Assembly: GCA_964566325.1 (NCBI GenBank)
Contig: CAZMIS010000002.1
Span: forward strand, 1 to 34,233
Direction: 5' to 3'
From: an uncultured Anaerolineales bacterium
GTDB lineage: Bacteria; Chloroflexota; Anaerolineae; CG2-30-64-16
Length of the DNA stretch: 34,233 nt
Part shown: positions 5,891 to 25,940 of the stretch, in pieces
Position numbering within the stretch: position 1 is the stretch's first letter
Layout of the letters: every line of letters starts with the position of its first letter
Position numbers and translations under genes: made by a program
The notes under the pieces: model-generated
What the model saw: the letters and a program-made list of their open reading frames with translations, nothing else
Databases searched by the model: none
Told to the model about the DNA's origin: nothing

Positions 5891-5952
5891 CCGCAGCCGG
5901 CTCCTTTTTTGCAGCCCGACGCAGATGATGTGGTTTCGTGAAACACGGCGCT

Positions 5953-6120
5953 GTGGTATAACAGGGGCCCTTATCCTGCTTGAATTGGGGGTCTTTTTCT
6001 ATGATGGCAAGAAAAGAAACGGACGGCTTTCCCTCAAAGGCGTTTTAAGCTATCGCAGCCCAATCCTGGTCTGACTGTACTGCCCCTGAGTGCCGGCGGT
6101 GGCCGTCAGCGGCATTTTCT
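5953..6120 (+). pseudogene. Truncated, diverged copy of a segment of the CPBP protease gene found at 26011-26739
   Basis: 5967-6120 aligns by eye at roughly three-quarters identity to 26171-26324. The peptide ALILLELGVFFYDGKKRNGRLSLKGVLSYRSPILV matches ALIPFELGVLLYVGKKKNGRLSLKGVLSYCSPIPV. The 11-mer GTGGTATAACA (5953-5963) recurs at 25968-25978, upstream of the intact gene. The reading frame is lost after 6074, and there is no start or catalytic motif. Confidence 0.6.
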
Positions 6121-6184
6121 TGATAAAGCATCTAAAAAATTCGACTTTCAATGACAATTTGTTGCAGTACTTACAACAGGCTGC

Positions 6185-6193
6185 TGCTATAAT
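6185..6193 (+). promoter_or_regulatory. Candidate extended -10 promoter (TGcTATAAT) upstream of the psi-array and cas3
   Basis: Exact TGnTATAAT match. The nearest -35-like hexamer, TTGCAG (6162-6167), sits at a non-optimal 20-bp spacing. Sequence prediction only. Confidence 0.35.
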
Positions 6194-6263
6194 TTTCTTA
6201 TGCATTCAACATGAAGGAATCATTTTTTTTGGCGACTTGAAATCGCACTGCAGCAGATATGGG

Positions 6264-6522
6264 ATTGTCCTCACACACGCAGGGTGGACTGCACAAGGGC
6301 GTTAGCAGACCTGGCACGCGATAAATTGTCTCCACGCATGTGGGGGTGAACCGCCCTGGTGAACTTACGCTGAATGATTGAGCACATCCCAAAGGAGATA
6401 AAAACATGAAACCCTCCGAAACAAAAGCTGAACGCCTGATTCAAATTGAGGCCTCGCTCCCGTCGCATCCTGAAGGTATAACACAAAGTGAAACTTCTCC
6501 CCACGCACGTGAGGGTGAACCG
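6264..6522 (+). CRISPR. Decayed CRISPR remnant (psi-repeats) upstream of and overlapping the cas3 5' end
   Basis: Identities are to the 29-nt array repeat. 6325-6353 ATTGTCTCCACGCATGTGGGGGTGAACCG matches 27/29. 6494-6522 CTTCTCCCCACGCACGTGAGGGTGAACCG matches 25/29. 6264-6291 ATTGTCCTCACACACGCAGGGTGGACTG matches about 20/29 with a 1-nt gap. The first two starts are 61 nt apart, which is the array period. A possible further relic lies near 6383-6405. Confidence 0.65.
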
Positions 6523-9228: not shown

Positions 9229-9254
9229 ACACAGCGCAACCCTTTAAATTTGTG

Positions 9255-9260
9255 TATAAT
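9255..9260 (+). promoter_or_regulatory. Candidate -10 box (TATAAT) driving the psi mini-array
   Basis: Perfect TATAAT 8 nt upstream of psiR1. There is no good -35 hexamer. Read-through from cas3 is an alternative transcript source. Confidence 0.45.
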
Positions 9261-9268
9261 CGAAGGAG

Positions 9269-9358
9269 AGGTCCCATGTCCCTGTGGGGGTGGCCCCACG
9301 GTTATTATGTATTTTGCCCAAACCGGCAAAACATCCCCACCAGAATGGGGATAAAACC
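9269..9358 (+). ncRNA. Candidate crRNA-like regulatory RNA gene (psiR1 - 32-nt psiS - psiR2), CreR/CreA-like
   Basis: psiR1 (9269-9297) matches the repeat in its 3' half (TGTGGGGGTG..CC). psiS is 9298-9329. psiR2 (9330-9358) keeps TCCCCAC-N5-TGGGG plus ATAAAACC. Start-to-start spacing is 61 nt, the same as the array period. See the first finding. Confidence 0.6.
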
Positions 9359-9384
9359 CGTCACAATGGCGGGTTTTATCATTT
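9353..9384 (+). terminator. Rho-independent terminator for cas3 and the psi mini-array
   Basis: AAAACCCG (9353-9360), a 9-nt loop, CGGGTTTT (9370-9377), then a T-rich tail TTTTATCATTT. The 5' arm overlaps the end of psiR2. Confidence 0.7.
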
Positions 9385-9419
9385 CAGCCACGTGGTACAA
9401 AAAATGGCAAAATTGCCTG

Positions 9420-9448
9420 TTGACAAAATCAAAAAACGAAAGTATTAT
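9420..9448 (+). promoter_or_regulatory. Near-consensus sigma70-type promoter for the cas8e-cas2 operon
   Basis: TTGACA (9420-9425), a 17-bp spacer, then TATTAT (9443-9448). It lies about 100 nt upstream of the cas8e start. Confidence 0.6.
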
Positions 9449-9449
9449 A

Positions 9450-9469
9450 AATACGGTAATTATATATTT
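9450..9469 (+). promoter_or_regulatory. Predicted Cascade/psi-crRNA operator (AAT PAM plus 17-nt partial protospacer) over the predicted operon TSS
   Basis: AAT (9450-9452) is followed by ACGGTAATTATATATTT (9453-9469). This matches psiS positions 1-5, 7-11 and 13-17. Confidence 0.55.
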
Positions 9470-9554
9470 AAAAAAGGAGGGTTAAATAAAGAGCAACCAT
9501 CTTTGCAAGCCGTTCAACATCGTCATCAAATCAGATTTGACGAAAGGAGGAAAT

Positions 9555-11132
9555 TTGTCAAAACAATATTCGTTCAATTTGCTGGCTGAACCCTGGATCC
9601 CGGTAGTGGATCATGGCGGCGCCGCCCGGCTTATCTCTTTGCGCGAAGCACTGGTGAATGCCCCAGCCTACCGCACCCTGAGCGCCAGCCTGCCCCATGC
9701 CAGCGCGGCAGTTTTACGCCTGCTGCTGGCGGTGCTGCACCGCAACTTCGGCCCGGCCGACACCCCAGATTGGGAAAAAATCTGGAATGCTGGCTGCTTC
9801 AACCCGGCTGCGCTGGAGGCTTATTTCACCCGCTGGCAGGATCGCTTTGATCTGTTCGATGAAACGCACCCGTTTTTCCAGCAGCGCCACCCACTGGTGG
9901 AAGAAAAACCCGCTCAGGCGCTGCTTCAGGCCGTTGGCGGCGGCGACACCTTCACCCTGTTTGACCACGTGATGGATGCCACCCCCTTCAGCCTGACCCC
10001 CGCGGAGGCCGCCCTGCTGCTGGTGACCACCCAGGCTTTCGCCCTGGCCGGCCTCTGCCATCCTCAGCTCAAGCTGGTGTATACCGATGCGCCCTGCAGC
10101 CGGGCAGTGGTGTTCTTTGTGGAGGGGAAAAACCTCTTTGAAACCCTCATGTACAACCTGGTGCGCTATAACCGGGCGGAACCCTTCCCCTGGAATGCTC
10201 AAACTGGCGACCGCGCTTTTTGGGAAGCAGAGGGTGATCCTTATAAGCCGGACCGCACCATTCCGCTGGGATACCTCGATTACCTGACCTGGCCCAACCG
10301 CCGCCTCAGGCTGATCCCTGAAGAACACAATGGTCAGGTGCGGGTCACCCGCATCACCACCGCCCCCGGGTTGCTGCTCGATGCCGCCCTGCATAACCCG
10401 ATGCACCATTACCGCATTGATCCGGGTAAAAAGGCTGGCGAGGAAATCTATAAGGTCCTGCGCTTCAGTGAAGGCCGCGCCCTCTGGCGCGACAGCAATG
10501 CCCTGCTCGATTTACGCGGACAGAACCGTGAAATTCCTCGCGCCATTCGCTGGGTGGGCGAGCTGGTCAATGAGGGCATTCTCCCATCTGGCGGCAGAAT
10601 GCAGTTGGCCGCCTACGGCATGTGCACCGAACCCGGCAAACAGAAGGTCTATTTTTACCGCCGCGAAGGTTTTGAAATTGCCCCGGCTTTGCTAAAAGAC
10701 GAACTGTTGATCGAAAAACTGGATACGGCTTTAAAGCATGCCAGGGACCTGGGCGACTCTTTGCGTTTCGTGATCAGAGAATTGGCTGCCTGGATTGTCG
10801 CATTAGATGCAAATCAGGAAACAATTCAAAAAAGCGCTGCCAAAAAAGATGACGATGTATCCAAGTTGATGGCGCACTGGAATGCAGAGGGTCTCTTTTG
10901 GAACAACCTTGAAGTGCCTTTCTACAGTTTTCTGCACCGCCTTCCGGATGATTCCCGCGGAGCTGAGGATAACTGGAACGAGGCCTTGGAACGTGCCTTT
11001 AGAGGCGCTTATAACCAGACTGTAGAGAACCTGGGTGATGATCTCAAAGCTTTAAAAGCGGCGGCTTACACCCGGGGCCGGCTCAATTACAGCCTCAAAA
11101 AAGTGCTGGGTGAAAAACCCGTGGAGGATTAG
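9555..11132 (+). CDS. cas8e: Cas8e/Cse1 (CasA), Cascade large subunit
   Basis: The N-terminus SKQYSFNLLAEPWIPV matches the conserved Cse1 start (FNLL.EPWIPV). AGGAGG (9545-9550) lies 4 nt before TTG 9555. The TTG 9537 in the ORF track would place that SD inside the gene. Confidence 0.9.
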   Translation: MSKQYSFNLLAEPWIPVVDHGGAARLISLREALVNAPAYRTLSASLPHASAAVLRLLLAVLHRNFGPADTPDWEKIWNAGCFNPAALEAYFTRWQDRFDLFDETHPFFQQRHPLVEEKPAQALLQAVGGGDTFTLFDHVMDATPFSLTPAEAALLLVTTQAFALAGLCHPQLKLVYTDAPCSRAVVFFVEGKNLFETLMYNLVRYNRAEPFPWNAQTGDRAFWEAEGDPYKPDRTIPLGYLDYLTWPNRRLRLIPEEHNGQVRVTRITTAPGLLLDAALHNPMHHYRIDPGKKAGEEIYKVLRFSEGRALWRDSNALLDLRGQNREIPRAIRWVGELVNEGILPSGGRMQLAAYGMCTEPGKQKVYFYRREGFEIAPALLKDELLIEKLDTALKHARDLGDSLRFVIRELAAWIVALDANQETIQKSAAKKDDDVSKLMAHWNAEGLFWNNLEVPFYSFLHRLPDDSRGAEDNWNEALERAFRGAYNQTVENLGDDLKALKAAAYTRGRLNYSLKKVLGEKPVED

Positions 11133-11133
11133 A

Positions 11134-11700
11134 ATGGCTTTACTCTCTAACGAACAAAATGCGTTTATCAGTTACCTGACCAGCCTGGCCAGGGCTGATG
11201 ACCGCGGCGCGCTGGCGGTTTTGCGGCGCGGGCTTTCGGGCAACCCGGCTGATGATCTCAACCTTTGCCGGTTTGTGTCTCCCCGCCTGCCTGATGAAGA
11301 CCGCGCAGCCGGCTGCGAGCCCATCTATTACCTGACGGCAGCGTTGTTTGCTCTGCACCCTTCAGAAAACCAGCAGGGCAATTTGGGCGCTCATCTGAAA
11401 CAGGCGGCCGGCCAGCGCAACGACTCTGACGCCGCCGAGCGGCGCTTCACGGCTCTGTTGAACACCCGCCGCGATGATCTCGACAAACCCCTGCGCCGTG
11501 CGGTGATGATGTTAAAACAGCAGGAAATTCCCGTGAACTGGCGTCAGTTGTTTTCTGACCTGCTGCTTTGGGATCACCCCAAAAAGCTCACCCAGCGCGC
11601 CTGGGCCAACAGTTTTTGGAGCTACGAACGCCCCATAGATACCTCAACTGCTGGCCAGCCTGGCCAGACCGAAGAAACCTTCCCTGAAGAAAACCAATAG
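11134..11700 (+). CDS. cse2: Cse2/Cas11 (CasB), Cascade small subunit
   Basis: Position between cse1 and cas7e, about 188 aa, with a LAVLRRGL-type motif. GGAGGA lies upstream of ATG 11134, which sits 1 nt after the cas8e stop. Confidence 0.85.
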   Translation: MALLSNEQNAFISYLTSLARADDRGALAVLRRGLSGNPADDLNLCRFVSPRLPDEDRAAGCEPIYYLTAALFALHPSENQQGNLGAHLKQAAGQRNDSDAAERRFTALLNTRRDDLDKPLRRAVMMLKQQEIPVNWRQLFSDLLLWDHPKKLTQRAWANSFWSYERPIDTSTAGQPGQTEETFPEENQ

Positions 11701-11711
11701 GAGAAAATACC

Positions 11712-12809
11712 ATGTTTATTGAACTGCATATCATCCAGAATTTCGCCCCTTCCAACTTGAACCGCGATGACACCAACACCCCCAAGGACTGTGAATTTGG
11801 CGGCGTGCGCCGCGCGCGCATTTCATCGCAGTGCTTTAAACGCGCTGTGCGCCATCACCCGGTTTTTGCCGCCACCACCGGCGTGCCGCTCAGCCACCGT
11901 TCCAACATGATGAAAGCCGAGCTGGTCCGGCGCCTGACGGCCGGCGGACTGGGCGAGGCCGAAGCGGCCGCGCGGGCTGAAGAATTCGCCAAGTGGTACA
12001 GCAGCAAAGCAGGAAAGATGGATAAGAATAAAACGCTGACCCTGATTTTTCTGAGCGAGGCGGAATTCCAGAGCGCCTTTGATTTCCTGCGCGAACATGA
12101 AGCAGCGGCCGAAATCAAGGCTTTTGCCGAAGAGATGGCCAAAACCACCAAAAACCGCCCCGGTGCGCCGGATATCGCCCTCTTTGGGCGTATGCTGGCC
12201 GACCGCCCCGAAACCAATATTGACGCCGCCTGCCAGGTGGCCCACGCCATTTCTACCCACGCCGTGAACATGGATATGGATTTCTTCACTGCCGTGGATG
12301 ATTTGCAGCAAAAACAGGAAAACCCCGAAACCGGTGCCGGCATGATGGGCCTGGGCGGGTTCAATTCAGCCTGTTTCTACCGCTATGCCTGCATTGATTT
12401 TGATCAGCTTTTGACCAGCCTGAAGGGCGATACCGCTCTGGCGGTTCGCACGGTGGAGGCCTTTTTGCGCGCCAGCGTGAAAGCCGTGCCCACCGGCAAA
12501 CAGAACAGCAGTGCGGCTCAAAACCCGCCCTCTTTCCTGATGACCGTGGTGCGCCGCGATGGCAGCGCCTGGTCGCTGGCCAACGCCTTCGAAAAACCGG
12601 TTTCCCCCAACGGGCAGGGTCTGGTCCATTCATCCGTGAAAGCCCTGGATGCCTATTGGGGCCGCCTGACCAGTTTCTACGGCGGCGATGCGCAGCCGGT
12701 GGTGGCGGTTCTCGATGACGATGCGCCGCTGACGGCCCTGAAGCCTGCCTGTGTGGCCTCTCTGGAAGACTGGATCAAGGAGACTTTGAATCTGGTTTCA
12801 CAAGGGTGA
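11712..12809 (+). CDS. cas7: Cas7e (CasC), Cascade backbone subunit
   Basis: The N-terminus MFIELHIIQNFAPSNLNRDDTNTPK...FGGVRRARISSQ is characteristic of Cas7e. A GGAGA SD is present. Confidence 0.93.
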   Translation: MFIELHIIQNFAPSNLNRDDTNTPKDCEFGGVRRARISSQCFKRAVRHHPVFAATTGVPLSHRSNMMKAELVRRLTAGGLGEAEAAARAEEFAKWYSSKAGKMDKNKTLTLIFLSEAEFQSAFDFLREHEAAAEIKAFAEEMAKTTKNRPGAPDIALFGRMLADRPETNIDAACQVAHAISTHAVNMDMDFFTAVDDLQQKQENPETGAGMMGLGGFNSACFYRYACIDFDQLLTSLKGDTALAVRTVEAFLRASVKAVPTGKQNSSAAQNPPSFLMTVVRRDGSAWSLANAFEKPVSPNGQGLVHSSVKALDAYWGRLTSFYGGDAQPVVAVLDDDAPLTALKPACVASLEDWIKETLNLVSQG

Positions 12810-12813
12810 TGCC

Positions 12814-13479
12814 ATGGATACACTGCTTTTACGCCTGATTGCTCCCCAGCAATCATGGGGAGTGCAGAGCCACTATACCATTCGCGACAGCGGCAAAGAG
12901 CCTTCCAAAAGCGGGGTCATTGGCCTGCTTTGCGCCGCCCTGGGGCGGCCGCGGGAGGCTGATGTGGCGGATCTGGCTGCCCTGCGCATGGGGGTGCGGG
13001 TGGACCGTGAGGGGACTCTGCGCAGCGACTACCACATTGCCCAAAATGTGCTTGACTCAGACGGCAAGGGAACCCGCGATAGCATTGTGACCAACCGCTA
13101 TTACCTGGCTGATGCCGCCTTCCTGGTGGGGCTGCAGGGTGATTTTGCCCTGCTCCAGCTGCTGCAGGAGGCGCTGCGCCATCCCGTCTGGGCCATTTAC
13201 CTGGGGCGCAAAGCCTTCACCCCGGCGGCCCCGGTCTGGCTGCCAGACGGTCTGCAAGCCGGGCTGGGCCTTGAAGATGCGCTGTGCCGTTATGGATGGA
13301 TCACACGGCGCCATGCCGCAGCTGATCCTGCCGGGGTGCGGGTGGTGCTGGAAATGGACGACGGTATGCAGGTGCGCCAGGATGTCCCCATCTCGTTTGC
13401 GGCGCGCCGTTTTTCCAGCCGGCGCGTCAGCACACGGCTGGTGCCTGCCCCATCAGCCCTGGCCATGGAGGTGATCTGA
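12814..13479 (+). CDS. cas5: Cas5e (CasD)
   Basis: The N-terminus LLLRLIAPQQSWG is typical of Cas5e. Gene order and size also fit. Confidence 0.9.
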   Translation: MDTLLLRLIAPQQSWGVQSHYTIRDSGKEPSKSGVIGLLCAALGRPREADVADLAALRMGVRVDREGTLRSDYHIAQNVLDSDGKGTRDSIVTNRYYLADAAFLVGLQGDFALLQLLQEALRHPVWAIYLGRKAFTPAAPVWLPDGLQAGLGLEDALCRYGWITRRHAAADPAGVRVVLEMDDGMQVRQDVPISFAARRFSSRRVSTRLVPAPSALAMEVI

Positions 13480-14114
13480 TGTACCTTTCACAACTCATCT
13501 TAAACCCGGGCAACAGGCTGGTGCTGGCAGACCTTTCCAACCCTTACCAGATGCACCGCACGGTGATGAGCGGCTTTCCGCAGAACCTGCCGCAAGATGA
13601 ACGCGTGCTGTTCAGGGTTGAATTGCAGCGTCAGGCGCCGGTGGCCCGGGTGCTGGTGCAATCTCATACCTCCCCCCGCTGGGATCACCTGCTTGAAAAA
13701 GGCTATTTGCAGCTTGCGGCTGAAGTCAAAGAAATCGCTTTCAGCCCCGCTGAAGGGCAGGTGTTCCGCTTCAGGCTGCTGGCCAACCCCACCAAACGCC
13801 TGCGCGCCGATGGCAAGGAAGACGGCCCGCGGGTGGGCCTGTTTCGTGAGCACGATCAGCAGGCCTGGCTTCAGCGCAAAGGTGAATTGCACGGCTTCAA
13901 GGTTCTGGAGGTCACGATTAGCAAAACGGTCCAGCCAGACGGCTGGAAGGTGACCGGCAGCGGGCAAAAGCACCGCCTGCGCCAGGTTGGGGCGCGTTTT
14001 GACGGCCGGCTGCAGGTGACGGACGCGCAGGCCTTCCTGCGGGCCTGGCTGGATGGCATTGGCAGCGGCAAAGGGCTGGGGTTTGGCCTGCTTTCGCTGG
14101 CGCCCGGCGCATAA
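13479..14114 (+). CDS. cas6e: Cas6e (CasE), pre-crRNA endoribonuclease
   Basis: MYLSQLILNP start and a glycine-rich C-terminus GIGSGKGLGFGLLSLAP. A TGATG overlap couples it to cas5. Confidence 0.9.
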   Translation: MYLSQLILNPGNRLVLADLSNPYQMHRTVMSGFPQNLPQDERVLFRVELQRQAPVARVLVQSHTSPRWDHLLEKGYLQLAAEVKEIAFSPAEGQVFRFRLLANPTKRLRADGKEDGPRVGLFREHDQQAWLQRKGELHGFKVLEVTISKTVQPDGWKVTGSGQKHRLRQVGARFDGRLQVTDAQAFLRAWLDGIGSGKGLGFGLLSLAPGA

Positions 14115-14185
14115 ATCAATTTCAAACCGGCGCGGGTGTTTTTCGCGCCTGCGCCGGTGCGTTCAATTAAATAAGGGGTGAAAAA

Positions 14186-15070
14186 ATGTCTTCAGAACTT
14201 TACGAATTGCCGCTGCTGCGCGACAGCCTTTCTTACTGCTATGTGGAACACGCCATTATTGACCGCAAAGACAGCGCCATCGAATACATCCGTCAGGATG
14301 GCCGGGTGCTGGTGCCGGTGGCGGCGCTCAGTGTGCTGATGCTGGGGCCTGGCACCAGCATTTCGCACGCAGCTATCAAGGTGCTGGCCGAAAACGGCTG
14401 CACGGTGCTGTGGGCAGGCGAAGGCGTCACGCACTGCTATGCTCAGGGACTCGGCGAAACCCGCAAAGCCTATCATCTGCTGCGCCAGGCTGAACTGCTG
14501 TGCCATCCAGAAACCCATGAAAAGGTGGTGCGGCGCATGTATCTGCGCCGTTTTCCTGAGGGTGTGCCCGAAGGCTGCAGCCTGATTCAGCTGCGGGGGC
14601 TGGAAGGCGCGCGTGTCAAGGCGGCCTATGCAGAAACGGCGCACAAATTCGGCGTGCGCTGGAGCGGCCGCCAGTATAACCGCGGCGATTGGAACGACGC
14701 CGACCCGCTGAACCGGGCCCTTTCAGCTGCCAATGCCCTTCTCAACGGCATCTGCCATGCGGCCATCATTTCGGGCGGTTATTCGCCTGCCCTGGGCTTC
14801 ATCCACACCGGCCGCCAGCTTTCCTTTGTATATGATATTGCCGACCTTTACAAGGCTGAATTCACCATTCCGGCGGCGTTTGAAGCTTTTGCCGCGGGCG
14901 AAAAAGGCGCCGAAAGCCGTACCCGCGCGCTGTGCCGCGAGCGCTTCAGGGAGGGCAAATTGCTGCAGCGCATTTTGCCCGATATTGACCAGATTCTTGA
15001 AATCAGCGTTCCCTCAGAAAGCATGCAGGGAGAAGACCCGGCCTCTGAACTGTGGGAAGAGCTTAACTGA
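14186..15070 (+). CDS. cas1: Cas1, type I-E integrase
   Basis: 294 aa, with a Cas1e-like N-terminus (LPLLRDSLSYCYVEHAIIDRKDSAI) and a position upstream of cas2. Confidence 0.93.
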   Translation: MSSELYELPLLRDSLSYCYVEHAIIDRKDSAIEYIRQDGRVLVPVAALSVLMLGPGTSISHAAIKVLAENGCTVLWAGEGVTHCYAQGLGETRKAYHLLRQAELLCHPETHEKVVRRMYLRRFPEGVPEGCSLIQLRGLEGARVKAAYAETAHKFGVRWSGRQYNRGDWNDADPLNRALSAANALLNGICHAAIISGGYSPALGFIHTGRQLSFVYDIADLYKAEFTIPAAFEAFAAGEKGAESRTRALCRERFREGKLLQRILPDIDQILEISVPSESMQGEDPASELWEELN

Positions 15071-15082
15071 AAGGGGGGCAGA

Positions 15083-15409
15083 ATGGTGGTGATCATTCTT
15101 GAAAACATTCCGGTTTCACTGCGCGGAGAATTGACCCGCTGGATGATTGAACCGCGCACGGGGGTTTTTGTGGGGCATCTTTCGGCGCGGGTGCGCGATA
15201 AATTGTGGGAAAAATGCCTGGCGCGCTGCCAGGATGGCGGGGTGGTGCAGCTTTGGAGCACCAACACCGAGCAGCATTTTGCCCTGCGTATGGCTGGTGA
15301 TACCAGCCGGCTGCTTGAACTGAACGAGGGTTTGCAGCTGATTAAAATTCCCGGTGAAAATCCTAAAGCGGCGCGGTTGAAAAGAAGCCGCGCCGGCCGG
15401 CCAGAATGA
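15083..15409 (+). CDS. cas2: Cas2, type I-E
   Basis: 108 aa. MVVIILENIPVSLRGELTRWMIEPRTGVFVG matches the Cas2e pattern. It lies directly upstream of the leader. Confidence 0.9.
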   Translation: MVVIILENIPVSLRGELTRWMIEPRTGVFVGHLSARVRDKLWEKCLARCQDGGVVQLWSTNTEQHFALRMAGDTSRLLELNEGLQLIKIPGENPKAARLKRSRAGRPE

Positions 15410-15497: not shown

Positions 15498-18400
15498 GTT
15501 GTCCCCACGCATGTGGGGGTGAACCGCACATCTCCCCACCTTGTGAAACGCGCGTTTAGTTGTCCCCACGCATGTGGGGGTGAACCGGTAGAGTGCCTCG
15601 CCCGTTGCGCCGTGGTCGAGTTGTCCCCACGCATGTGGGGGTGAACCTAAAGCTGGATGACCTGGGTACACCTGACGATAGTTGTCCCCACGCATGTGGG
15701 GGTGAACCTCCACACGCTCAGAGTGTTGTCATAAATCAGCAGTTGTCCCCACGCATGTGGGGGTGAACCTGAGGCAAAAGGTCTGGGCGCGATCCTAAAA
15801 ACGTTGTCCCCACGCATGTGGGGGTGAACCTAACATAGTTGGCTTTGAGACTGAGGCCAATCCGTTGTCCCCACGCATGTGGGGGTGAACCTTCAGATAG
15901 CCATTACAATCTTTCTGAATACGCGTTGTCCCCACGCATGTGGGGGTGAACCCGTAAGCTCGCCCGCCTGTAAGCCGCCCGTGACGTTGTCCCCACGCAT
16001 GTGGGGGTGAACCTGCCACCGTCTGCGGCGGTTCCTTCCACCCACGGTTGTCCCCACGCATGTGGGGGTGAACCTGTTATGGCTCAAACAGCTAAACATC
16101 GACCTCAGTTGTCCCCACGCATGTGGGGGTGAACCTCAAACCCGTGCCTTCGTTGGCGCACCGGCTCAGTTGTCCCCACGCATGTGGGGGTGAACCGATA
16201 CGCATACCCCAGTTTTCAGCGAAAGCCATGTTGTCCCCACGCATGTGGGGGTGAACCTTTGGCTTCTCGTCTATCCCACCGGCGATCAAGCGTTGTCCCC
16301 ACGCATGTGGGGGTGAACCGATTGGCCGCTTCGTTGTGAAAGCGAGGCGCAACCGTTGTCCCCACGCATGTGGGGGTGAACCTATGGCGGCTTCACGGTT
16401 GAGAAGTGGCCGGCAGTTGTCCCCACGCATGTGGGGGTGAACCGTGTTGGAGCAGGAAAGGGATACCCTTTTGGACCGTTGTCCCCACGCATGTGGGGGT
16501 GAACCGTCCCAATGGCCAGCGGGTGATGGTTTTGCGTCCGTTGTCCCCACGCATGTGGGGGTGAACCGTTTCACCGTGACATTCTGCCAGTTCATTTCTC
16601 GTTGTCCCCACGCATGTGGGGGTGAACCGCACGCCTGCCATCCGCCGCAACCTCAAGGCATTCGTTGTCCCCACGCATGTGGGGGTGAACCTGGTATGGA
16701 ACGAAAAACTCCACGCGCAACCAAGTTGTCCCCACGCATGTGGGGGTGAACCGGAGTACCTGCCCGTCCGCCCCTGCCGTGATGGTGTTGTCCCCACGCA
16801 TGTGGGGGTGAACCTCACGCCTCCAGCAAAAAGCACCGGGATACCCGTTGTCCCCACGCATGTGGGGGTGAACCGATGACAGAACGTAATCAGAGCCGCT
16901 TGTGGTGGTTGTCCCCACGCATGTGGGGGTGAACCGCGCCCCCATGATGGCGCGGCCCTGGATCGCCCGTTGTCCCCACGCATGTGGGGGTGAACCGTCG
17001 TAAGCCCACAGGTGAAAGCCCGCCATGCTGTTGTCCCCACGCATGTGGGGGTGAACCGTCCGACCCGTTCGCTCTCTCCTGATACACAGGGTTGTCCCCA
17101 CGCATGTGGGGGTGAACCGAACCGCGGTGCGCTTCAGGTTTGTTTTGCCGCGTTGTCCCCACGCATGTGGGGGTGAACCTGACCCTGTGACCGTTGCGGA
17201 GCTGCTTTCGTTGTTGTCCCCACGCATGTGGGGGTGAACCTCACTTTGAGCAGGATTTCAGGCATGACGGTCTGTTGTCCCCACGCATGTGGGGGTGAAC
17301 CGATGATGGCGTTGAAATTATGGTCTGTGAGCCTGTTGTCCCCACGCATGTGGGGGTGAACCGAGCGCAACCGGTGGAACTGACCAGACTGACCAGTTGT
17401 CCCCACGCATGTGGGGGTGAACCTAGAGGACATGGGCGACCGCCTGACCCGCTTTGAGTTGTCCCCACGCATGTGGGGGTGAACCTCCATCGTTGTCGAG
17501 GACAGCGCCCCGCTCGATGTTGTCCCCACGCATGTGGGGGTGAACCTGGCGCTGTCCTCTTCCGTGTGCGTGGTGTCTAGTTGTCCCCACGCATGTGGGG
17601 GTGAACCTAAAAACAGCCCTGCTTTCTGTTGCATCGTGGCGTTGTCCCCACGCATGTGGGGGTGAACCGGGTGGAACCCCATGCGACAAATCGCGGCATC
17701 GTTGTCCCCACGCATGTGGGGGTGAACCTCGCAGGGCGGCCTGCCTGAAATCGTGGCAACCGTTGTCCCCACGCATGTGGGGGTGAACCGTACAATTTCT
17801 GTCGATGAACCGGCAATCATCAGTTGTCCCCACGCATGTGGGGGTGAACCTATGCGTGTGACAACCACATAAAAAATCTTGCAGTTGTCCCCACGCATGT
17901 GGGGGTGAACCTCACACCCGACACATCCGCACCCGCAAACACGGGTTGTCCCCACGCATGTGGGGGTGAACCTAAGCGTTAGCTAGAGCGCTCATGTCAG
18001 GATCAGTTGTCCCCACGCATGTGGGGGTGAACCTGTCACCAAACCTTGAGCTTCTTTGCTGGTGGCGTTGTCCCCACGCATGTGGGGGTGAACCTACTTT
18101 GAGCGCCCTTGTGTAGAAAGGTCTAACAGTTGTCCCCACGCATGTGGGGGTGAACCGCATCAAGGAACTGCCAGACGATGACGAGATAGGTTGTCCCCAC
18201 GCATGTGGGGGTGAACCGGGGATGGTTCTGGAACGGACAAAACAAACCTCGTTGTCCCCACGCATGTGGGGGTGAACCGCGCGTGATAATAACGAGAAAT
18301 GGCGGCTGGCGGTTGTCCCCACGCATGTGGGGGTGAACCTTCGTGACCGGAACCGGCGACGGCGACCCTGACGTTGTCCCCACGCATGTGGGGGTGAACC

Positions 18401-21400
18401 TCGTTTTCACCAGAAGAATGCTATTTTGTAGCCGTTGTCCCCACGCATGTGGGGGTGAACCTGGCTGAGGATATGAAAAAATGGCAAAGAAAAGCGTTGT
18501 CCCCACGCATGTGGGGGTGAACCTACTTGTTGACATGATTTTAGCGCGGGATTTAGGTTGTCCCCACGCATGTGGGGGTGAACCGTATATGACGGTCATC
18601 AGCGGTTATCTGTTTTGGTTGTCCCCACGCATGTGGGGGTGAACCTATGACTGGAAAAGCAGCGTATACAGCAACTTAGTTGTCCCCACGCATGTGGGGG
18701 TGAACCGACAAACGGCGGATGTCCAGTTTGACGCCGCCGGTTGTCCCCACGCATGTGGGGGTGAACCTAGCGCCGGCCACAAACCAATCAAACAACCACC
18801 CGTTGTCCCCACGCATGTGGGGGTGAACCGTTTATCGCAGACAACGCGGAAGCGGCATGGGATAGTTGTCCCCACGCATGTGGGGGTGAACCCATATGTT
18901 TGGCTTGACAGATGACCACGCGCACCGTTGTCCCCACGCATGTGGGGGTGAACCTTTTAGCACGCTGTCCGATGTGTGGAAGCACACGTTGTCCCCACGC
19001 ATGTGGGGGTGAACCGGAGAAACCAATGACGAAACTTGATGCACATCCGTTGTCCCCACGCATGTGGGGGTGAACCTATATCCTTTTGATGCGAGATTAA
19101 TTTATTATAGTTGTCCCCACGCATGTGGGGGTGAACCTGCTTGCCCAGGCAGGCGAGGCCGTGTACAACGGTTGTCCCCACGCATGTGGGGGTGAACCGG
19201 ACACCGATGCGGCAGATGCTCATGGTTTCGCCGTTGTCCCCACGCATGTGGGGGTGAACCTACTGGCGTGGCCACTGGTGATTATACATACACCGTTGTC
19301 CCCACGCATGTGGGGGTGAACCGAGTAACCGTTTAGGAGGTACAGCATGGCAGGTAGTTGTCCCCACGCATGTGGGGGTGAACCTAACGAAGTACAGCGC
19401 GAACTTATCAAGCAAATCGTTGTCCCCACGCATGTGGGGGTGAACCGTCTCACCGTCTGCAAAATGCACGCCTGCTTGAGTTGTCCCCACGCATGTGGGG
19501 GTGAACCGAAAAGCGGCGGCATCGTTGCGCTTCACATGCTGTTGTCCCCACGCATGTGGGGGTGAACCTCTACCCTGAAATCGTGCAAGGCAACCCCCTC
19601 AGTTGTCCCCACGCATGTGGGGGTGAACCTGAAATGCCCGACCTCTTTGAAGTGGGTGGCCGCCGTTGTCCCCACGCATGTGGGGGTGAACCTCGCTCAT
19701 GAGGAGGTTCAATCAGGCGGCAGCCCGTTGTCCCCACGCATGTGGGGGTGAACCTAAAAGCCCGCTGTAGCTGCGGGTTTTTGCTGGGTTGTCCCCACGC
19801 ATGTGGGGGTGAACCCGGAAGCCGATTGTTTGCACCTCGCCCCATGCCAGTTGTCCCCACGCATGTGGGGGTGAACCTCAGCCGCCGGCGGTCGTAGGGG
19901 ATACGGCTTCAGTTGTCCCCACGCATGTGGGGGTGAACCTAAAAGCGGCCCTGCTTTCTGTTGCATCGTGGCGTTGTCCCCACGCATGTGGGGGTGAACC
20001 GTTTTCACCATGTACTCATACGGCGTTTGCGGTGTTGTCCCCACGCATGTGGGGGTGAACCTTCAGGCGCAACCTGAAAATCGAGGTGGAAGCAGTTGTC
20101 CCCACGCATGTGGGGGTGAACCTGTGTGCTCCACCCTGATATGCAATCCGTAACCGGTTGTCCCCACGCATGTGGGGGTGAACCTGAGATGAGCGCGGAA
20201 TGCGTCTGCGCTCGCAGTTGTCCCCACGCATGTGGGGGTGAACCTTTCCGTGATGATCTCGAATTCCTCTTCAACCCGTTGTCCCCACGCATGTGGGGGT
20301 GAACCTGGGGCGGATGGTTGTGCCGTCAATCAGGTCCAGTTGTCCCCACGCATGTGGGGGTGAACCTGTGAAAGGCTCAGTCCACACCTCACAAGTATTA
20401 GTTGTCCCCACGCATGTGGGGGTGAACCTGTAGGCCTGAATTGTTTTACCTCGGAAATCTTGTTGTCCCCACGCATGTGGGGGTGAACCGGACACAGGCC
20501 CGCACCGGGGCGTATGGATCAGTTGTCCCCACGCATGTGGGGGTGAACCTCAATTTGCCCTGCCCGGCAAGAGCCTGTTGCCGTTGTCCCCACGCATGTG
20601 GGGGTGAACCTGCTGCTGGAGAATGGGCAGGTTATCGCCGTAAGTTGTCCCCACGCATGTGGGGGTGAACCTGGCGCAACCAGTGGACTGAGTGCGTCTG
20701 CAACTGTTGTCCCCACGCATGTGGGGGTGAACCGGGTGGCAGCCTGGCTGAATGGGCTGGCTTTATCGTTGTCCCCACGCATGTGGGGGTGAACCGGGCG
20801 CTGTAAGGGGCCGCCTGGGTCAAGTCTTGTTGTCCCCACGCATGTGGGGGTGAACCGTTACCTGGACAATCACAGTTTGGACAACAATTGTTGTCCCCAC
20901 GCATGTGGGGGTGAACCGGATTGGGAAGGTGAAGAATTTGTGATTGGATCGTTGTCCCCACGCATGTGGGGGTGAACCTGAAATTTCAGGAAGAGGCTGA
21001 TTGCCATCAGCAGTTGTCCCCACGCATGTGGGGGTGAACCGTGTCAACCGGCGGTAAAGCCGGGATGACCGCGGTTGTCCCCACGCATGTGGGGGTGAAC
21101 CTTCTGCACCCTGTACTCAGGCCGCAGCGCGTCCGTTGTCCCCACGCATGTGGGGGTGAACCTTTTGATAATATAGGCGCCGTTCATAAGGGCTTGTTGT
21201 CCCCACGCATGTGGGGGTGAACCTGGCCCAACTGGAGGCTAACAGGCTCGCGCATATGTTGTCCCCACGCATGTGGGGGTGAACCTTGATTTTGCCGGTA
21301 ACGGAAAGATAACCCCCGTTGTCCCCACGCATGTGGGGGTGAACCTCTTCGGGCATGGTTTCACCTCCCGGCTAAAACGTTGTCCCCACGCATGTGGGGG

Positions 21401-24400
21401 TGAACCTAAAAAATAAACTGATTAACTTTTTTGGAAATAGTTGTCCCCACGCATGTGGGGGTGAACCGGACACCGCTAAAGGGTGGCATCAAGGGCGACA
21501 TGTTGTCCCCACGCATGTGGGGGTGAACCTGTTTTATGTTTTGGACGTTAAGCGCGGACAATGTTGTCCCCACGCATGTGGGGGTGAACCTGGGACATCA
21601 GCTGCCAGGCATTGATTACGTAAGTTGTCCCCACGCATGTGGGGGTGAACCGGATCATGCCAGCTTGACTTGCCCACCCTGTTGGTTGTCCCCACGCATG
21701 TGGGGGTGAACCTAATCATTAACCCTGTTTTTCAACAGAACCACAGTTGTCCCCACGCATGTGGGGGTGAACCTACTATGCCCATGATCTGGATTGATGA
21801 CGAAAGGTTGTCCCCACGCATGTGGGGGTGAACCTTTCAGGGCCGAGTTTATCAGCCAAAGCGGGCAGTTGTCCCCACGCATGTGGGGGTGAACCGTGGC
21901 GGGGCATTGACAAGCTTACGCCGCCTTTCGTTGTCCCCACGCATGTGGGGGTGAACCTTTCCAGTTTCTTGCTGACCACCTTCAGCCAACCGTTGTCCCC
22001 ACGCATGTGGGGGTGAACCTACAACCGTATCCCGGGTTGAGAAACGTACACGGTTGTCCCCACGCATGTGGGGGTGAACCAATAGGCCCGGCTTACGGCA
22101 GAACGATAAGAACCGTTGTCCCCACGCATGTGGGGGTGAACCTAGCACGGGACCGCATTTACACTTTGAGGTCAGAGTTGTCCCCACGCATGTGGGGGTG
22201 AACCTACTTTTGTGTCTTGCCGTGTGACCTCAGAGACCGTTGTCCCCACGCATGTGGGGGTGAACCTCGTCTTCATCTTCATCGTTTTCTGAAAAGGCGG
22301 TTGTCCCCACGCATGTGGGGGTGAACCTGAGCCGATTTACCCCGAGTATAAAATTTGTAAGTTGTCCCCACGCATGTGGGGGTGAACCGACCTGACCATA
22401 CCTACCCCCCGGACGCAAATCGTTGTCCCCACGCATGTGGGGGTGAACCTTTTTCATAGCCGCGGGGATTGCCCCTTTTTCACGTTGTCCCCACGCATGT
22501 GGGGGTGAACCAAATACCGGCACCGAAGAATTAACCGTGAGTTCGTTGTCCCCACGCATGTGGGGGTGAACCTCGAATTGCGTACATCCTCAAAGGCCAC
22601 GCCGCGTTGTCCCCACGCATGTGGGGGTGAACCGCCTGAAAGCCTGAAGCTCTGTTTGCATGGAGAGTTGTCCCCACGCATGTGGGGGTGAACCTATGGA
22701 AAAAGATAAATTTTCAAACATTGCAGGTGTTGTCCCCACGCATGTGGGGGTGAACCTAAAAAAAAGGTGGCCGATCAAGCCACCCAGGAGTTGTCCCCAC
22801 GCATGTGGGGGTGAACCTTAAACGAGGAGATGCCGATTACGTGAGATGCAGTTGTCCCCACGCATGTGGGGGTGAACCTGATTGTCTGTCCACAGTGCGG
22901 CGCATTCGTCAGTTGTCCCCACGCATGTGGGGGTGAACCTGTGGCTGCATTTTCTTTAACTACAAGGGGTAAAGTTGTCCCCACGCATGTGGGGGTGAAC
23001 CTGGTTCCATAATTTTTTAATACCCTTTGCTATCGTTGTCCCCACGCATGTGGGGGTGAACCTTTCGCTTTCCTGACGCGCTAATGGAAGGCGTTAGTTG
23101 TCCCCACGCATGTGGGGGTGAACCTTAGCACCAGAACGGCCACCACCTCGGAAGGCGGTTGTCCCCACGCATGTGGGGGTGAACCTGCTGTGCCAGCCCT
23201 GCTGGATTGGATCATCCGTTGTCCCCACGCATGTGGGGGTGAACCTGGTGAGCCTAAAACATAATCTGCTTTTTCGTGGTTGTCCCCACGCATGTGGGGG
23301 TGAACCGATAACAAGAGGAGAGGATCTGCCAAATAAGCGGTTGTCCCCACGCATGTGGGGGTGAACCTGTCCTCTTCTATACTGAGGAGATACTGGCTCC
23401 GTTGTCCCCACGCATGTGGGGGTGAACCTGATCCTGGCTGGAGAAGAGCTAAACAGCCAAAGTTGTCCCCACGCATGTGGGGGTGAACCGGAGGAGATAC
23501 TGGAGCCGTTATAGTGGATTAGTTGTCCCCACGCATGTGGGGGTGAACCTAATGCGGCAACCTGTTTTATTTTCTCTTTTTTGGTTGTCCCCACGCATGT
23601 GGGGGTGAACCTCCCTCCATGAGCGATCGTCCAACCGCATGCCAGTTGTCCCCACGCATGCGGGGGTGAACCGCGAGGCGATCAAATCGCTGACCATGAA
23701 AGAGGGTTGTCCCCACGCATGTGGGGGTGAACCTTCGGGCAGCCGGCGGTCATTACGGCGCTTTACGTTGTCCCCACGCATGTGGGGGTGAACCTACGGC
23801 ACGCTAAACTTGCGAGTAAGCGCGGGCGTTGTCCCCACGCATGTGGGGGTGAACCGCACAGCGGCGCATCCACGATTCAAAAGCACGTGTTGTCCCCACG
23901 CATGTGGGGGTGAACCTGACCAACCATGCGTATCTTCTTCGCCATGCAATCGTTGTCCCCACGCATGTGGGGGTGAACCTATGTCGATTTGTCAGAAGAT
24001 GAAGAAAAGATCGTTGTCCCCACGCATGTGGGGGTGAACCGGTTGATGCTGTGATAACCGACCCGCCTTATGGGTTGTCCCCACGCATGTGGGGGTGAAC
24101 CGTACAGGCCGCCATTGATGAGGCGCGGGAGGTTGTTGTCCCCACGCATGTGGGGGTGAACCTAAACCTTCTCGGAATCGGCGGCGCGGCAGGCGGTTGT
24201 CCCCACGCATGTGGGGGTGAACCTTTTAGATGGTGATATTACGGCAATCATATTTAGTTGTCCCCACGCATGTGGGGGTGAACCGGAAGCGAGCAAGGCC
24301 TCCCGCCGTGTCTCCAAGTTGTCCCCACGCATGTGGGGGTGAACCGAACCTATCAAAGACACCGAAACAGAGCGGGCTGTTGTCCCCACGCATGTGGGGG

Positions 24401-25940
24401 TGAACCTGATAATCCATATATCGAACGGGAAGAAATCGAAGTTGTCCCCACGCATGTGGGGGTGAACCTATCTCACCCCGTTCTGGCAGGCGTGGAACTC
24501 GGTTGTCCCCACGCATGTGGGGGTGAACCTCGGCCTGCGCAGCGGGTCAGAGCCAAACCTCGGTTGTCCCCACGCATGTGGGGGTGAACCTGATTGCCGT
24601 GCAATTGTCACCCGTTGCGATAAGTTGTCCCCACGCATGTGGGGGTGAACCTAATAAAAAGATGTTTTGCGAGATGCGATCATCCAGTTGTCCCCACGCA
24701 TGTGGGGGTGAACCGGTGGAACGATTAGTGGCGAAAAAACTAGTCGTCGTTGTCCCCACGCATGTGGGGGTGAACCTAACACGACCTGTATTTTTGTTGA
24801 TGGTTACCGGTTGTCCCCACGCATGTGGGGGTGAACCTGGACAAAACATTTTTCGTTTCAGCGCGCCTAGTTGTCCCCACGCATGTGGGGGTGAACCGGA
24901 TACGGAAACTGAAAAAGCTTTTTTGGGCGCGTTGTCCCCACGCATGTGGGGGTGAACCTGCACGAAGCCTCGTTTATGCGCGCGGCTGGCGCGTTGTCCC
25001 CACGCATGTGGGGGTGAACCTAAAAAACGACAATACGCCATTTGATCCAACGCGTTGTCCCCACGCATGTGGGGGTGAACCTATGTCATTTCAGCCCTCA
25101 CAGAAGCGATTGAAGTTGTCCCCACGCATGTGGGGGTGAACCGGTGAAATCGACGGACTGCGATTGATGATTGAAGTTGTCCCCACGCATGTGGGGGTGA
25201 ACCTTTCATCAACAGAAAGCTCGCCTGTTCCAATCAGTTGTCCCCACGCATGTGGGGGTGAACCTACACTCGATGAACAAAGTCGGAATGCGCGCCAGTT
25301 GTCCCCACGCATGTGGGGGTGAACCGTATGTTGCCGGCGTTGATCTTGCTATGACCACAGTTGTCCCCACGCATGTGGGGGTGAACCGCTGTTTTGCTCG
25401 GTGGCCCATTCTTGCAAACGGTTGTCCCCACGCATGTGGGGGTGAACCGTTGAAGCCGCCCTCACCACCACATGATTGATAGTTGTCCCCACGCATGTGG
25501 GGGTGAACCTCCACTGTCTGAGTTGGCGGCTCCGGCGGGCACGTTGTCCCCACGCATGTGGGGGTGAACCGACTTAAAAACCCGTTCCGGCTCCTTCCCA
25601 CTTCGTTGTCCCCACGCATGTGGGGGTGAACCTGGTAAAACGGGCTGATGTGCCTCATTTTGTGACAGTTGTCCCCACGCATGTGGGGGTGAACCTTAGC
25701 TGCCCCCGCCGTAATTGACCCATAATTCGTTGTCCCCACGCATGTGGGGGTGAAGTATTGAGCAGCTCATCAATGCGGCCCGCACGCTCGTTGTCCCCAC
25801 GCATGTGGGGGTGAACCTGAGGATTACTGGACGATGCGCGTTCCACTGACGTTGTCCCCACGCATGTGGGGGTGAACCGAAAACAAAGCTAAGAAAACTT
25901 TATCAAAAGCGGTTGTCCCCACGCATGTGGGGGTGAACCT
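15498..25940 (+). CRISPR. Type I-E CRISPR array, 171 repeats and 170 spacers (hand count)
   Basis: The 28-nt core GTTGTCCCCACGCATGTGGGGGTGAACC is followed by a variable 29th nt. Repeat-to-repeat period is 60-63 nt, mostly 61. The stem is CCCCAC/GTGGGG with a GCAT loop. Orientation is the same as the cas genes and the array is adjacent to the leader. Only two variant repeats were seen, at 23645 and 25729. Confidence 0.99.

Follow-up and report, generated by a model that had tools for sequence, protein, structure and literature searches.

A putative CreR-type Cas-regulating mini-CRISPR between cas3 and cas8e in the type I-E locus of an Anaerolineaceae bacterium

[quoted passage not shown] With a probability of about 85%, we consider this element to be a CreR-type Cas-regulating mini-CRISPR. 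Its identification as a putative autorepressor of the cas8e–cas2 operon relies on the published Salmonella CreR circuit and on a survey of mini-arrays, both discussed below. Here, the window is the whole stretch of DNA analyzed, 34,233 nt in length, and positions are counted from its first letter.

A complete type I-E locus was encoded in the window, with every cas gene on the + strand. The 3' end of cas3 was at position 9228, and the most likely start of cas8e was the TTG codon at 9555, preceded by AGGAGG; the gap between the two genes was 326 nt in length. Cas7 was identical to a protein of a metagenome-assembled genome (MAG) named Anaerolineaceae by NCBI, and the nearest relatives of Cas8e were encoded in MAGs of Anaerolineae/Chloroflexota. 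The operon and the array that follows it were delimited as follows:

9555..15409, + strand: cas8e (TTG 9555)–cse2–cas7–cas5e–cas6e (13479-14114)–cas1e–cas2e, the operon proposed to be regulated (NCBIfam equivalog hits)
15498..25940 (end approximate), + strand: main CRISPR array, 171 repeats and 170 spacers (sequence reading)

The array repeat consisted of GTTGTCCCCACGCATGTGGGGGTGAACC and one variable 29th base, and the modal array period was 61 nt (117 of 172 intervals). Both the 170 spacers of the initial annotation and its statement that T is the commonest nucleotide at the PAM-derived 29th position were borne out by counting: the 29th base was T in 108, G in 56, C in 3, and A in 2 of the 169 repeats with an exact core (G reaches 59 when two copies upstream of cas3 and near-matches are included). 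These two copies were located at 6325 and 6494. The gene body of a WYL regulator was gone from the window, and CRISPR repeats were found in its place upstream of cas3. A second regulatory mini-array at this site was considered and rejected, as no seed-type target in the window was found for the sequence that follows either of these repeats (6325 and 6494). A candidate third repeat (6264) was also rejected, its identity to the array repeat (17/29) being within the chance range and its spacer having no target. An Rfam scan of positions 5800-9800 in E-value mode returned sub-threshold chance hits only.

The mini-array comprised the following features, all of which had the coordinates and sequences of the initial annotation when they were read again, from the TATAAT box to the terminator:

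9255..9260, + strand: TATAAT, -10 box of the predicted mini-array promoter
9269..9297, + strand: psiR1, degenerate first repeat, AGGTCCCATGTCCCTGTGGGGGTGGCCCC, with the 3' stem arm GTGGGG kept
9290..9297, + strand: equivalent of the 8-nt 5' handle within psiR1, GTGGCCCC
9298..9329, + strand: psiS, 32-nt pseudo-spacer, ACGGTTATTATGTATTTTGCCCAAACCGGCAA; targeting part, positions 1-17 (9298-9314)
9330..9358, + strand: psiR2, degenerate second repeat, AACATCCCCACCAGAATGGGGATAAAACC, with the Cas6e-type hairpin CCCCA-CCAGAA-TGGGG at the repeat register
about 9350..9384, + strand: intrinsic-terminator-like hairpin of 14 bp followed by a U-rich tail (sequence and fold)

The mini-array promoter had a perfect -10 box and no recognizable -35 box. 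[quoted passage not shown] A gene-finder call of a 69-aa open reading frame over the element (9276-9485) was rejected: the start codon was lost in the closest related locus, L001, the changes between the two loci were mostly non-synonymous, and no Pfam hit was obtained.

Both repeats were heavily altered. Ungapped identity to the array repeat was 15/29 for psiR1 and 16/29 for psiR2, which is within the chance range for the window, and on identity alone they are therefore too diverged to be called repeats. Their proposed origin from repeats rests on the register, a contiguous 10-nt block, the hairpin, the 61-nt spacing, and a graded series in relatives. The match of psiR1 to the array repeat was limited to TGTGGGGGTG..CC, the psiR2 hairpin had the same register as that of the array repeat and was kept in six of the seven loci found to carry such mini-arrays, and the distance from psiR1 to psiR2 was 61 nt, equal to the modal array period, as originally noted. 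In the graded series, near-intact repeats occupied the same positions in two related loci: L011 had two near-intact repeats, and L088 had an intact handle and hairpin. These two loci link the very degenerate psiR1 and psiR2 of the window to genuine repeats.

Two positions of the handle GTGGCCCC deviated from the array handle GTGAACCN, so that five of the seven specified handle positions matched. Array handles of related systems varied at exactly these two positions (GTG-AA/AT/TT-CC), and the deviations are therefore probably tolerated. A competing hairpin, GUGGGG-GUGG-CCCCAC at 9282-9301, pairs the handle and spacer nucleotides 1-2 with the stem arm of psiR1; as free RNA it had a predicted energy of -16.0 kcal/mol, compared with -6.5 kcal/mol for the weak Cas6e-type hairpin of psiR1 at the repeat register, and it could, according to this folding, hinder processing or loading. 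The isolated minimum free energy fold of the whole transcript paired psiR1 with psiR2; this was not counted as evidence because any pre-crRNA would do likewise.

The site matched by the pseudo-spacer lies in the same gap, and the following features were found there:

9420..9448, + strand: sigma-70-like promoter of cas8e–cse2–cas7–cas5–cas6e–cas1–cas2, TTGACA-N17-TATTAT, with 11 of 12 consensus positions
9450..9452, + strand: AAT, PAM of the target, matching the PAM deduced from viral protospacers
9453..9469, + strand: target (protospacer strand), ACGGTAATTATATATTT, across the expected transcription start

The promoter was the sole sigma-70-like site on the + strand found within 5800-9700, and the target began 5 nt after its -10 box, in agreement with the original placement of the target at the promoter of the operon. 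The pseudo-spacer and the target were identical at positions 1-5, 7-11, and 13-17 and differed at positions 6, 12, and 18; this pattern, first described in the initial annotation, was confirmed, and the similarity of psiS positions 18-32 to the target was at the chance level. The thumbs of Cas7 flip out each sixth nucleotide of the guide in type I-E Cascade. The repeats of the mini-array are not intact and pairing ends at position 17; it is thus not a canonical array with an interference-competent spacer.

The pattern ACGGTNATTATNTATTT occurred at just two places in the 34-kb window, with none expected from 100 shuffles. When the base composition of the region was taken into account, a match at all 15 specified positions anywhere on either strand of the 326-nt gap had a probability of about 1.5e-6; the match is thus non-random, as had been claimed, and the value of 4^-15 given for it was slightly too optimistic. 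None of the other 32-mers of the gap had an equally good seed-type match there, except for the reciprocal one, and no second seed-type partner of psiS with at least 8 positions was found anywhere in the window.

The PAM of the system was determined from the array itself. All 170 array spacers were mapped to the examined part of the IMG/VR contig IMGVR_UViG_3300020036_005345. The leader-proximal spacers 3, 4, and 6 matched it perfectly, and each of the three protospacers was flanked by AAT on the 5' side. Protospacers with up to 3 mismatches were flanked by AAT twice, by AAG once, and by GAT once; the spacer corresponding to the AAG protospacer follows a repeat ending in G. The last PAM base is the 29th repeat base, and in nearly all arrays of the related clade this base was T, then G. 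AAT is the canonical PAM of the system, and AAG is the second one. The site at the cas8e promoter therefore bears a proper PAM, and the earlier reading of the AAT preceding the target as a PAM is confirmed by direct mapping.

No protospacers were found in cultured phages or plasmids, the single plasmid match being a similar CRISPR array in Acaryochloris, and a further scan of viral sequences with the array spacers gave no match. A viral mimic of psiS of the Cracr kind was also considered; the two matches to handle plus seed represented the same coding sequence without a repeat hairpin and were attributed to chance. No repeat-like or seed-like site was present in the fragment of the targeted virus.

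About 170 related loci were collected. A search of the genome collection with Cas8e alone recovered no relatives, and an alignment-based scan did recover them. In most of the related loci cas3 adjoins cas8e; in a minority of the closer clade, the cas3–cas8e gap was 230-345 nt in length. The same architecture as in the window was found in six loci of Anaerolineae, namely, L001, L078, L002, L088, L005, and L011, with Cas8e identities to the window of 93, 64, 59, 58, 57, and 50%, respectively. The shared order is a TATAAT box, a first repeat reduced to the 3' stem arm and the handle, a 32-nt spacer, and a second repeat keeping the hairpin, usually followed by a terminator hairpin and then by a sigma-70-like promoter before cas8e. 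In each of the seven loci with a mini-array (the window and these six), the TATAAT box was located 26-38 nt ahead of the start of the spacer, and a hairpin equivalent to the terminator followed psiR2 in L001, L078, L002, L088, and L005. In L005, position 5 of the seed was mismatched and psiR2 was decayed; this locus may thus be non-functional.

Most relatives without a mini-array had cas3 abutting cas8e or a gap without a recognizable promoter. In L080/L081 and L007, a promoter and a target-like site were present and no mini-array was found in the DNA examined, which indicates that the promoter can exist without the guide. The mini-array was also absent from the further relatives L158-L163 and L173-L177. 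As a candidate for a mini-array upstream of cas3 in loci where cas3 abuts cas8e, a repeat-like match in L004/L082 was rejected, since it represented only the part of the WYL regulator gene that encodes the HTH. Four near-identical contigs from other samples (99.9-100% identity) had zero differences in the spacer region between cas3 and cas8e. The exact strain of the window is present in the JGI samples 3300025871 and 3300009783 and in the studies from which SRR21285879 and SRR28789609 derive.

The collection of homologous I-E loci, proposed in the initial annotation as a check for co-variation of psiS with the promoter site, gave a clear result. L001 was 94% identical to the window across the gap, and in it AC was replaced by GT at psiS positions 1-2 and, identically, at target positions 1-2. 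In all seven loci, the target started at spacer position 1 and was flanked by AAT. The best sigma-70-like promoter upstream of cas8e in each gap had its -10 box next to the target or overlapping it. The agreement of spacer and target in the seven loci, counted in cells of one position in one locus, was as follows:

Cascade-paired positions 1-5, 7-11, and 13-15: spacer equal to target in 90 of 91 cells
flipped-out positions 6 and 12: 1 of 14 cells
positions 16-20: 6 of 35 cells

At 10 of the 13 paired positions the spacers of the loci differed from one another, and the target followed each time; the spacers matched their own targets at 12-13 of 13 positions, compared with 5-11 for the targets of the other loci. 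The target was on the coding strand in the window, L001, L088, and L011 and on the opposite strand in L078, L002, and L005. This covariation indicates that guide–target complementarity is kept by selection. Spacer positions 8, 13, and 15 were invariant, so the mini-arrays may share ancestry, and fully independent origins are not claimed. The agreement at positions 6 and 12 was below the expected value of about a quarter; this deficit could itself have been selected, for example, against recombination or primed adaptation.

The same data bear on the proposal that the element is a functionless relic, i.e., a decayed array fragment or an old promoter-derived self-targeting spacer, with hairpins that are merely the terminator of cas3. 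The high degeneracy of psiR1 and psiR2, the decayed appearance of L005, and the absence of the element from most relatives speak in its favor. However, neutral decay cannot give 90/91 agreement at paired positions and 1/14 at flipped positions with spacers differing at 10 of 13 positions, and it leaves unexplained why AC became GT in spacer and target alike in L001, why AAT adjoins 7/7 targets, and why the match always starts at spacer position 1. We regard a relic as very improbable.

It is still harder to believe that the two similar 17-mers are duplicate operators that bind a DNA-binding protein, such as a WYL-domain regulator, rather than an RNA guide and its target. A WYL/WCX regulator gene is indeed located upstream of cas3, or fused to it, in many relatives, and would provide a candidate protein; the window, however, keeps both sites despite the loss of the WYL gene body. 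The similarity always starts exactly one 8-nt handle after the repeat stem, AAT is present on the target side only, matching has a 5+1 periodicity, and the strand switches between lineages, none of which is predicted by a protein operator.

For the CreR-type element, the following course of events is proposed. The part of psiR1 corresponding to the crRNA 5' handle is kept except at two positions, and the psiR2 hairpin to which Cas6e would bind is kept. The unit would be transcribed from the TATAAT box and cut by Cas6e at psiR1 and psiR2, yielding a crRNA-like RNA that would assemble into Cascade. Cascade would then recognize AAT and form a short three-segment R-loop over the -10/start-site region. 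Recruitment of Cas3 requires a completed, locked R-loop. Since pairing would halt at about 17 nt, the R-loop should stay unlocked, Cas3 should not be recruited, and the DNA should remain uncut. The bound complex would block RNA polymerase, and Cascade would thereby repress its own operon. On the model of the published CreR, titration of Cascade by crRNAs of the 170-spacer array or by anti-CRISPR proteins should relieve the repression. Matching that starts at position 1 and proceeds in blocks of 5 nt, the lack of constraint at each sixth position, the stop after three blocks, the PAM, and the location at the promoter would all follow if a guide of Cascade has to bind without licensing Cas3. The PAM, the covariation, and the promoter geometry support the original reading of the element as the source of a crRNA-like repressor of the Cascade operon; its expression, processing, and repressive effect are predictions from sequence.

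The distance from the target to the cas8e start was about 100 nt in the window. This leader contained an SD-like sequence, AAGGAGGG, at 9474-9481, which was conserved in L001; no canonical start codon follows it. The leader is relevant to another explanation, according to which the element is an addiction module of the CreTA type: the guide would repress a promoter driving a small toxin (a CreT-like RNA or peptide) in the leader of about 100 nt, and loss of Cascade would kill the cell. CreA elements resemble CreR elements, and small toxins are readily overlooked; the strong SD-like sequence and an 18-codon upstream open reading frame in the leader of L002 would also be compatible with such a module. 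Nevertheless, no SD-led open reading frame of at least 8 codons was found between the target and cas8e in the window, a search that is blind to an RNA toxin without an open reading frame. Furthermore, no leader element was conserved across the seven loci, and in L088 and L011 only about 45 nt separated the target from the cas8e start. An addiction module is, in our opinion, improbable, and repression of the cas operon itself remains the preferred interpretation of the element.

Several known systems resemble the element. The I-E CreR of Salmonella enterica lies upstream of casA, and its match of 15 nt is next to an AAG PAM (Liu et al., bioRxiv 10.1101/2023.03.10.532045); it repressed P_casA 8.6-fold in E. 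coli, an effect that was lost on mutation and relieved by excess crRNA and by AcrIE8 (10.1101/2023.03.10.532045). CreR autorepression has been published for type I-E, I-B, and V-A systems. The window element, like Salmonella CreR, is a degenerate mini-CRISPR upstream of casA/cas8e without an evident toxin, and in both cases about 15 nt match the promoter region of the Cascade operon beside a PAM; autorepression was measured in Salmonella and is proposed here. Salmonella CreR retains the nucleotides of the 5' handle (psiR1) as well as the 3' hairpin (psiR2), whereas in the window the hairpin is kept and the handle matches at 5/7 positions. The two also differ in the PAM (AAT in the window, AAG in Salmonella), in the match (interrupted at 6, 12, and 18 in the window, 15 consecutive nt in Salmonella), and in the location of the target (-10/start site, about 100 nt before cas8e, in the window; about 140 bp upstream of casA in Salmonella). 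Their sequences are unrelated, and the host of the window element belongs to Chloroflexota.

According to the text of a survey by Shmakov et al. (bioRxiv 10.1101/2023.03.03.530964/PMC10120712), mini-arrays between cas3 and cas8 occur in about 19% of bacterial I-E loci. As described there, the I-E and I-F1 mini-arrays resemble the window element in their position in the locus, in having two repeat-like units with one degraded, and in a partial seed-proximal match in the cas8 promoter beside the cognate PAM; sixth-position mismatches were noted for the I-F1 mini-arrays (PMC10120712). The repeat upstream of the spacer is reported in the text of the survey to be the better conserved one, whereas both repeats were heavily degraded in the window. 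Neither an Anaerolineae example nor an AAT PAM was found in the cited passages of the survey.

The I-B CreTA of Haloarcula hispanica (described in 10.1101/2023.03.10.532045) likewise involves a crRNA-like RNA from a degenerate mini-CRISPR, and its Cascade binds a promoter by partial complementarity without cleavage, as proposed for the window; the partner of CreA, however, is a toxin gene under the repressed promoter, which was not detectable in the window, and the subtype is I-B rather than I-E. The tracr-L of the II-A system of Streptococcus pyogenes (cited in 10.1101/2023.03.10.532045) is also a natural guide of short complementarity by which the effector represses its own promoter, but it is a long tracrRNA isoform acting with a class 2 single-protein effector, without a mini-array or Cas6 processing. 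Cracr mimics of phages (bioRxiv 10.1101/2024.10.29.618823) have the same psiR–psiS–psiR organization, with seeds equal to those of host CreR; these are encoded by viruses and silence the host system, whereas the window element belongs to a host locus. The taxa named for such elements in the cited passages of that study are Pseudomonadota, Bacillota, and Actinomycetota (10.1101/2024.10.29.618823).

The mechanism is thus not new; it is the known, experimentally validated CreR kind of Cas autoregulation. What is new, relative to the portions of these sources cited here, is the Chloroflexota host, the AAT PAM, the strictly interrupted match, and the comparative series for selection on pairing. A further suggestion, to which we assign a low probability, is that the mini-array is a re-programmable regulator, with the guide re-aimed between lineages within the same promoter window, even to the opposite strand. 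In every case the guide has a 32-nt spacer, AAT is retained as the acquisition PAM, and pairing ends after 15-17 nt. Such re-aiming would fit repeated capture of promoter self-spacers by Cas1–Cas2, with shortened pairing selected afterwards. The RNA circuit may now be the only regulator of the system in the window, since the WYL-domain regulator gene upstream of cas3 has given way to CRISPR repeats.

For genome annotation, the locus demonstrates that gene callers put a spurious 69-aa gene over a mini-array. With the putative CreR-type element, Cas autorepression by an RNA guide would be extended to the Chloroflexota (Anaerolineaceae) and, among type I-E systems, to one with an AAT PAM. The seven-locus series represents an unusually clean natural experiment; it provides evolutionary evidence that the 5+1 pairing rule holds in vivo and that the regulatory interaction is under selection.

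The main CRISPR array of the window (15498–25940) contained spacers of 32 nt (117), 33 nt (38), 31 nt (8), and 34 nt (7). Its only degenerate repeat was the last one (…GTGAAGT); because degeneracy is confined to this repeat, a leader at the cas2-proximal end of the array fits. The viral contig L164 (IMGVR_UViG_3300020036_005345) was matched by at least eight spacers of the array with no more than three mismatches:

15649–17883, + strand: array spacers 3, 4, 6, 10, 22, 23, 24, and 39, matching L164

Three leader-proximal spacers matched L164 perfectly, with protospacers located within ~600 bp and on both strands. Among the PAMs of the L164 protospacers, AAT ranked first and AAG second. These matches look like recent and possibly primed adaptation against that virus.

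A second target-like copy was found in the related locus L011 (3745–3763), inside the promoter region of its own mini-array, where AAT precedes a stretch that matches the L011 spacer at 11 seed positions. Judging by this pairing, the L011 guide might also repress its own transcription. Unlike L011, the window had no second target-like site in the mini-array promoter region. In three other related loci, L080 (4000–4030), L081 (1725–1755), and L007 (3805–3835), TATAAT was followed by a homologue of the target site of L002 and L078, two loci with the mini-array; the sites of L080 and L081 also retained ATT (AAT on the other strand). Neither a mini-array nor a matching guide was found in these three loci within the 9–10 kb searched.

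The cas8e leader contained a strong Shine–Dalgarno-like sequence, AAGGAGGG (9474–9481), ~75 nt upstream of the real cas8e ribosome-binding site and conserved in the closest locus, L001 (4919–4926). No canonical start codon followed it in the leader: TAA and then ATA, in frame with cas8e, were present. Public gene calls (contigs L165–L168) place a 69-aa hypothetical protein across the mini-array and promoter (9276–9485); this gene is probably an annotation artefact, since its start codon is lost in L001 and the protein has no family match.

A few distant relatives had, instead of a mini-array, coding-looking cas3–cas8e gaps of 400–560 nt, some on the opposite strand, which may hold inserted cargo genes:

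L015, 3440–4000
L147, 2680–3147
L019, 3592–3986
L065, 3520–3986

In many relatives, a WYL/WCX regulator was fused to the N-terminus of Cas3 in one protein of ~1250 aa (e.g., L162, 4075–7833), and Cas3 of 1220–1270 aa occurred in many of the related loci. In other relatives (L001, L158, L160, and L177), the regulator had its own gene, which overlapped the start of cas3.

The following features were found upstream of cas3 in the window (+ strand):

6264–6292: repeat-like match (17/29, within chance range), exactly 61 nt upstream of the next repeat
6325–6353: near-intact CRISPR repeat (27/29)
6354–6493: WYL/HTH regulator gene remnant (140 nt)
6494–6522: near-intact CRISPR repeat (25/29), immediately 5′ of cas3

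The remnant, flanked by repeats on both sides, comprised the 5′ UTR and the initial ~29 codons, the rest of the gene body being absent; in L001, this gene was still intact upstream of cas3. GGGTGAACCG, native to the WYL gene (coding ..GVNR..), represents microhomology to the 3′ end of the CRISPR repeat. The sequence at 6264–6292 shares its first six bases, ATTGTC, with the repeat at 6325 and is possibly a third, very degenerate repeat; for the 32 nt between them, no target was found within the window. AGAAAAATG, directly 3′ of the repeat at 6494–6522, is likely the true cas3 start (6529), and therefore the annotated ORF beginning at 6406 would be a fusion artefact. If the 6325–6522 region is transcribed within the cas3 mRNA, Cas6e could cleave the cas3 leader.
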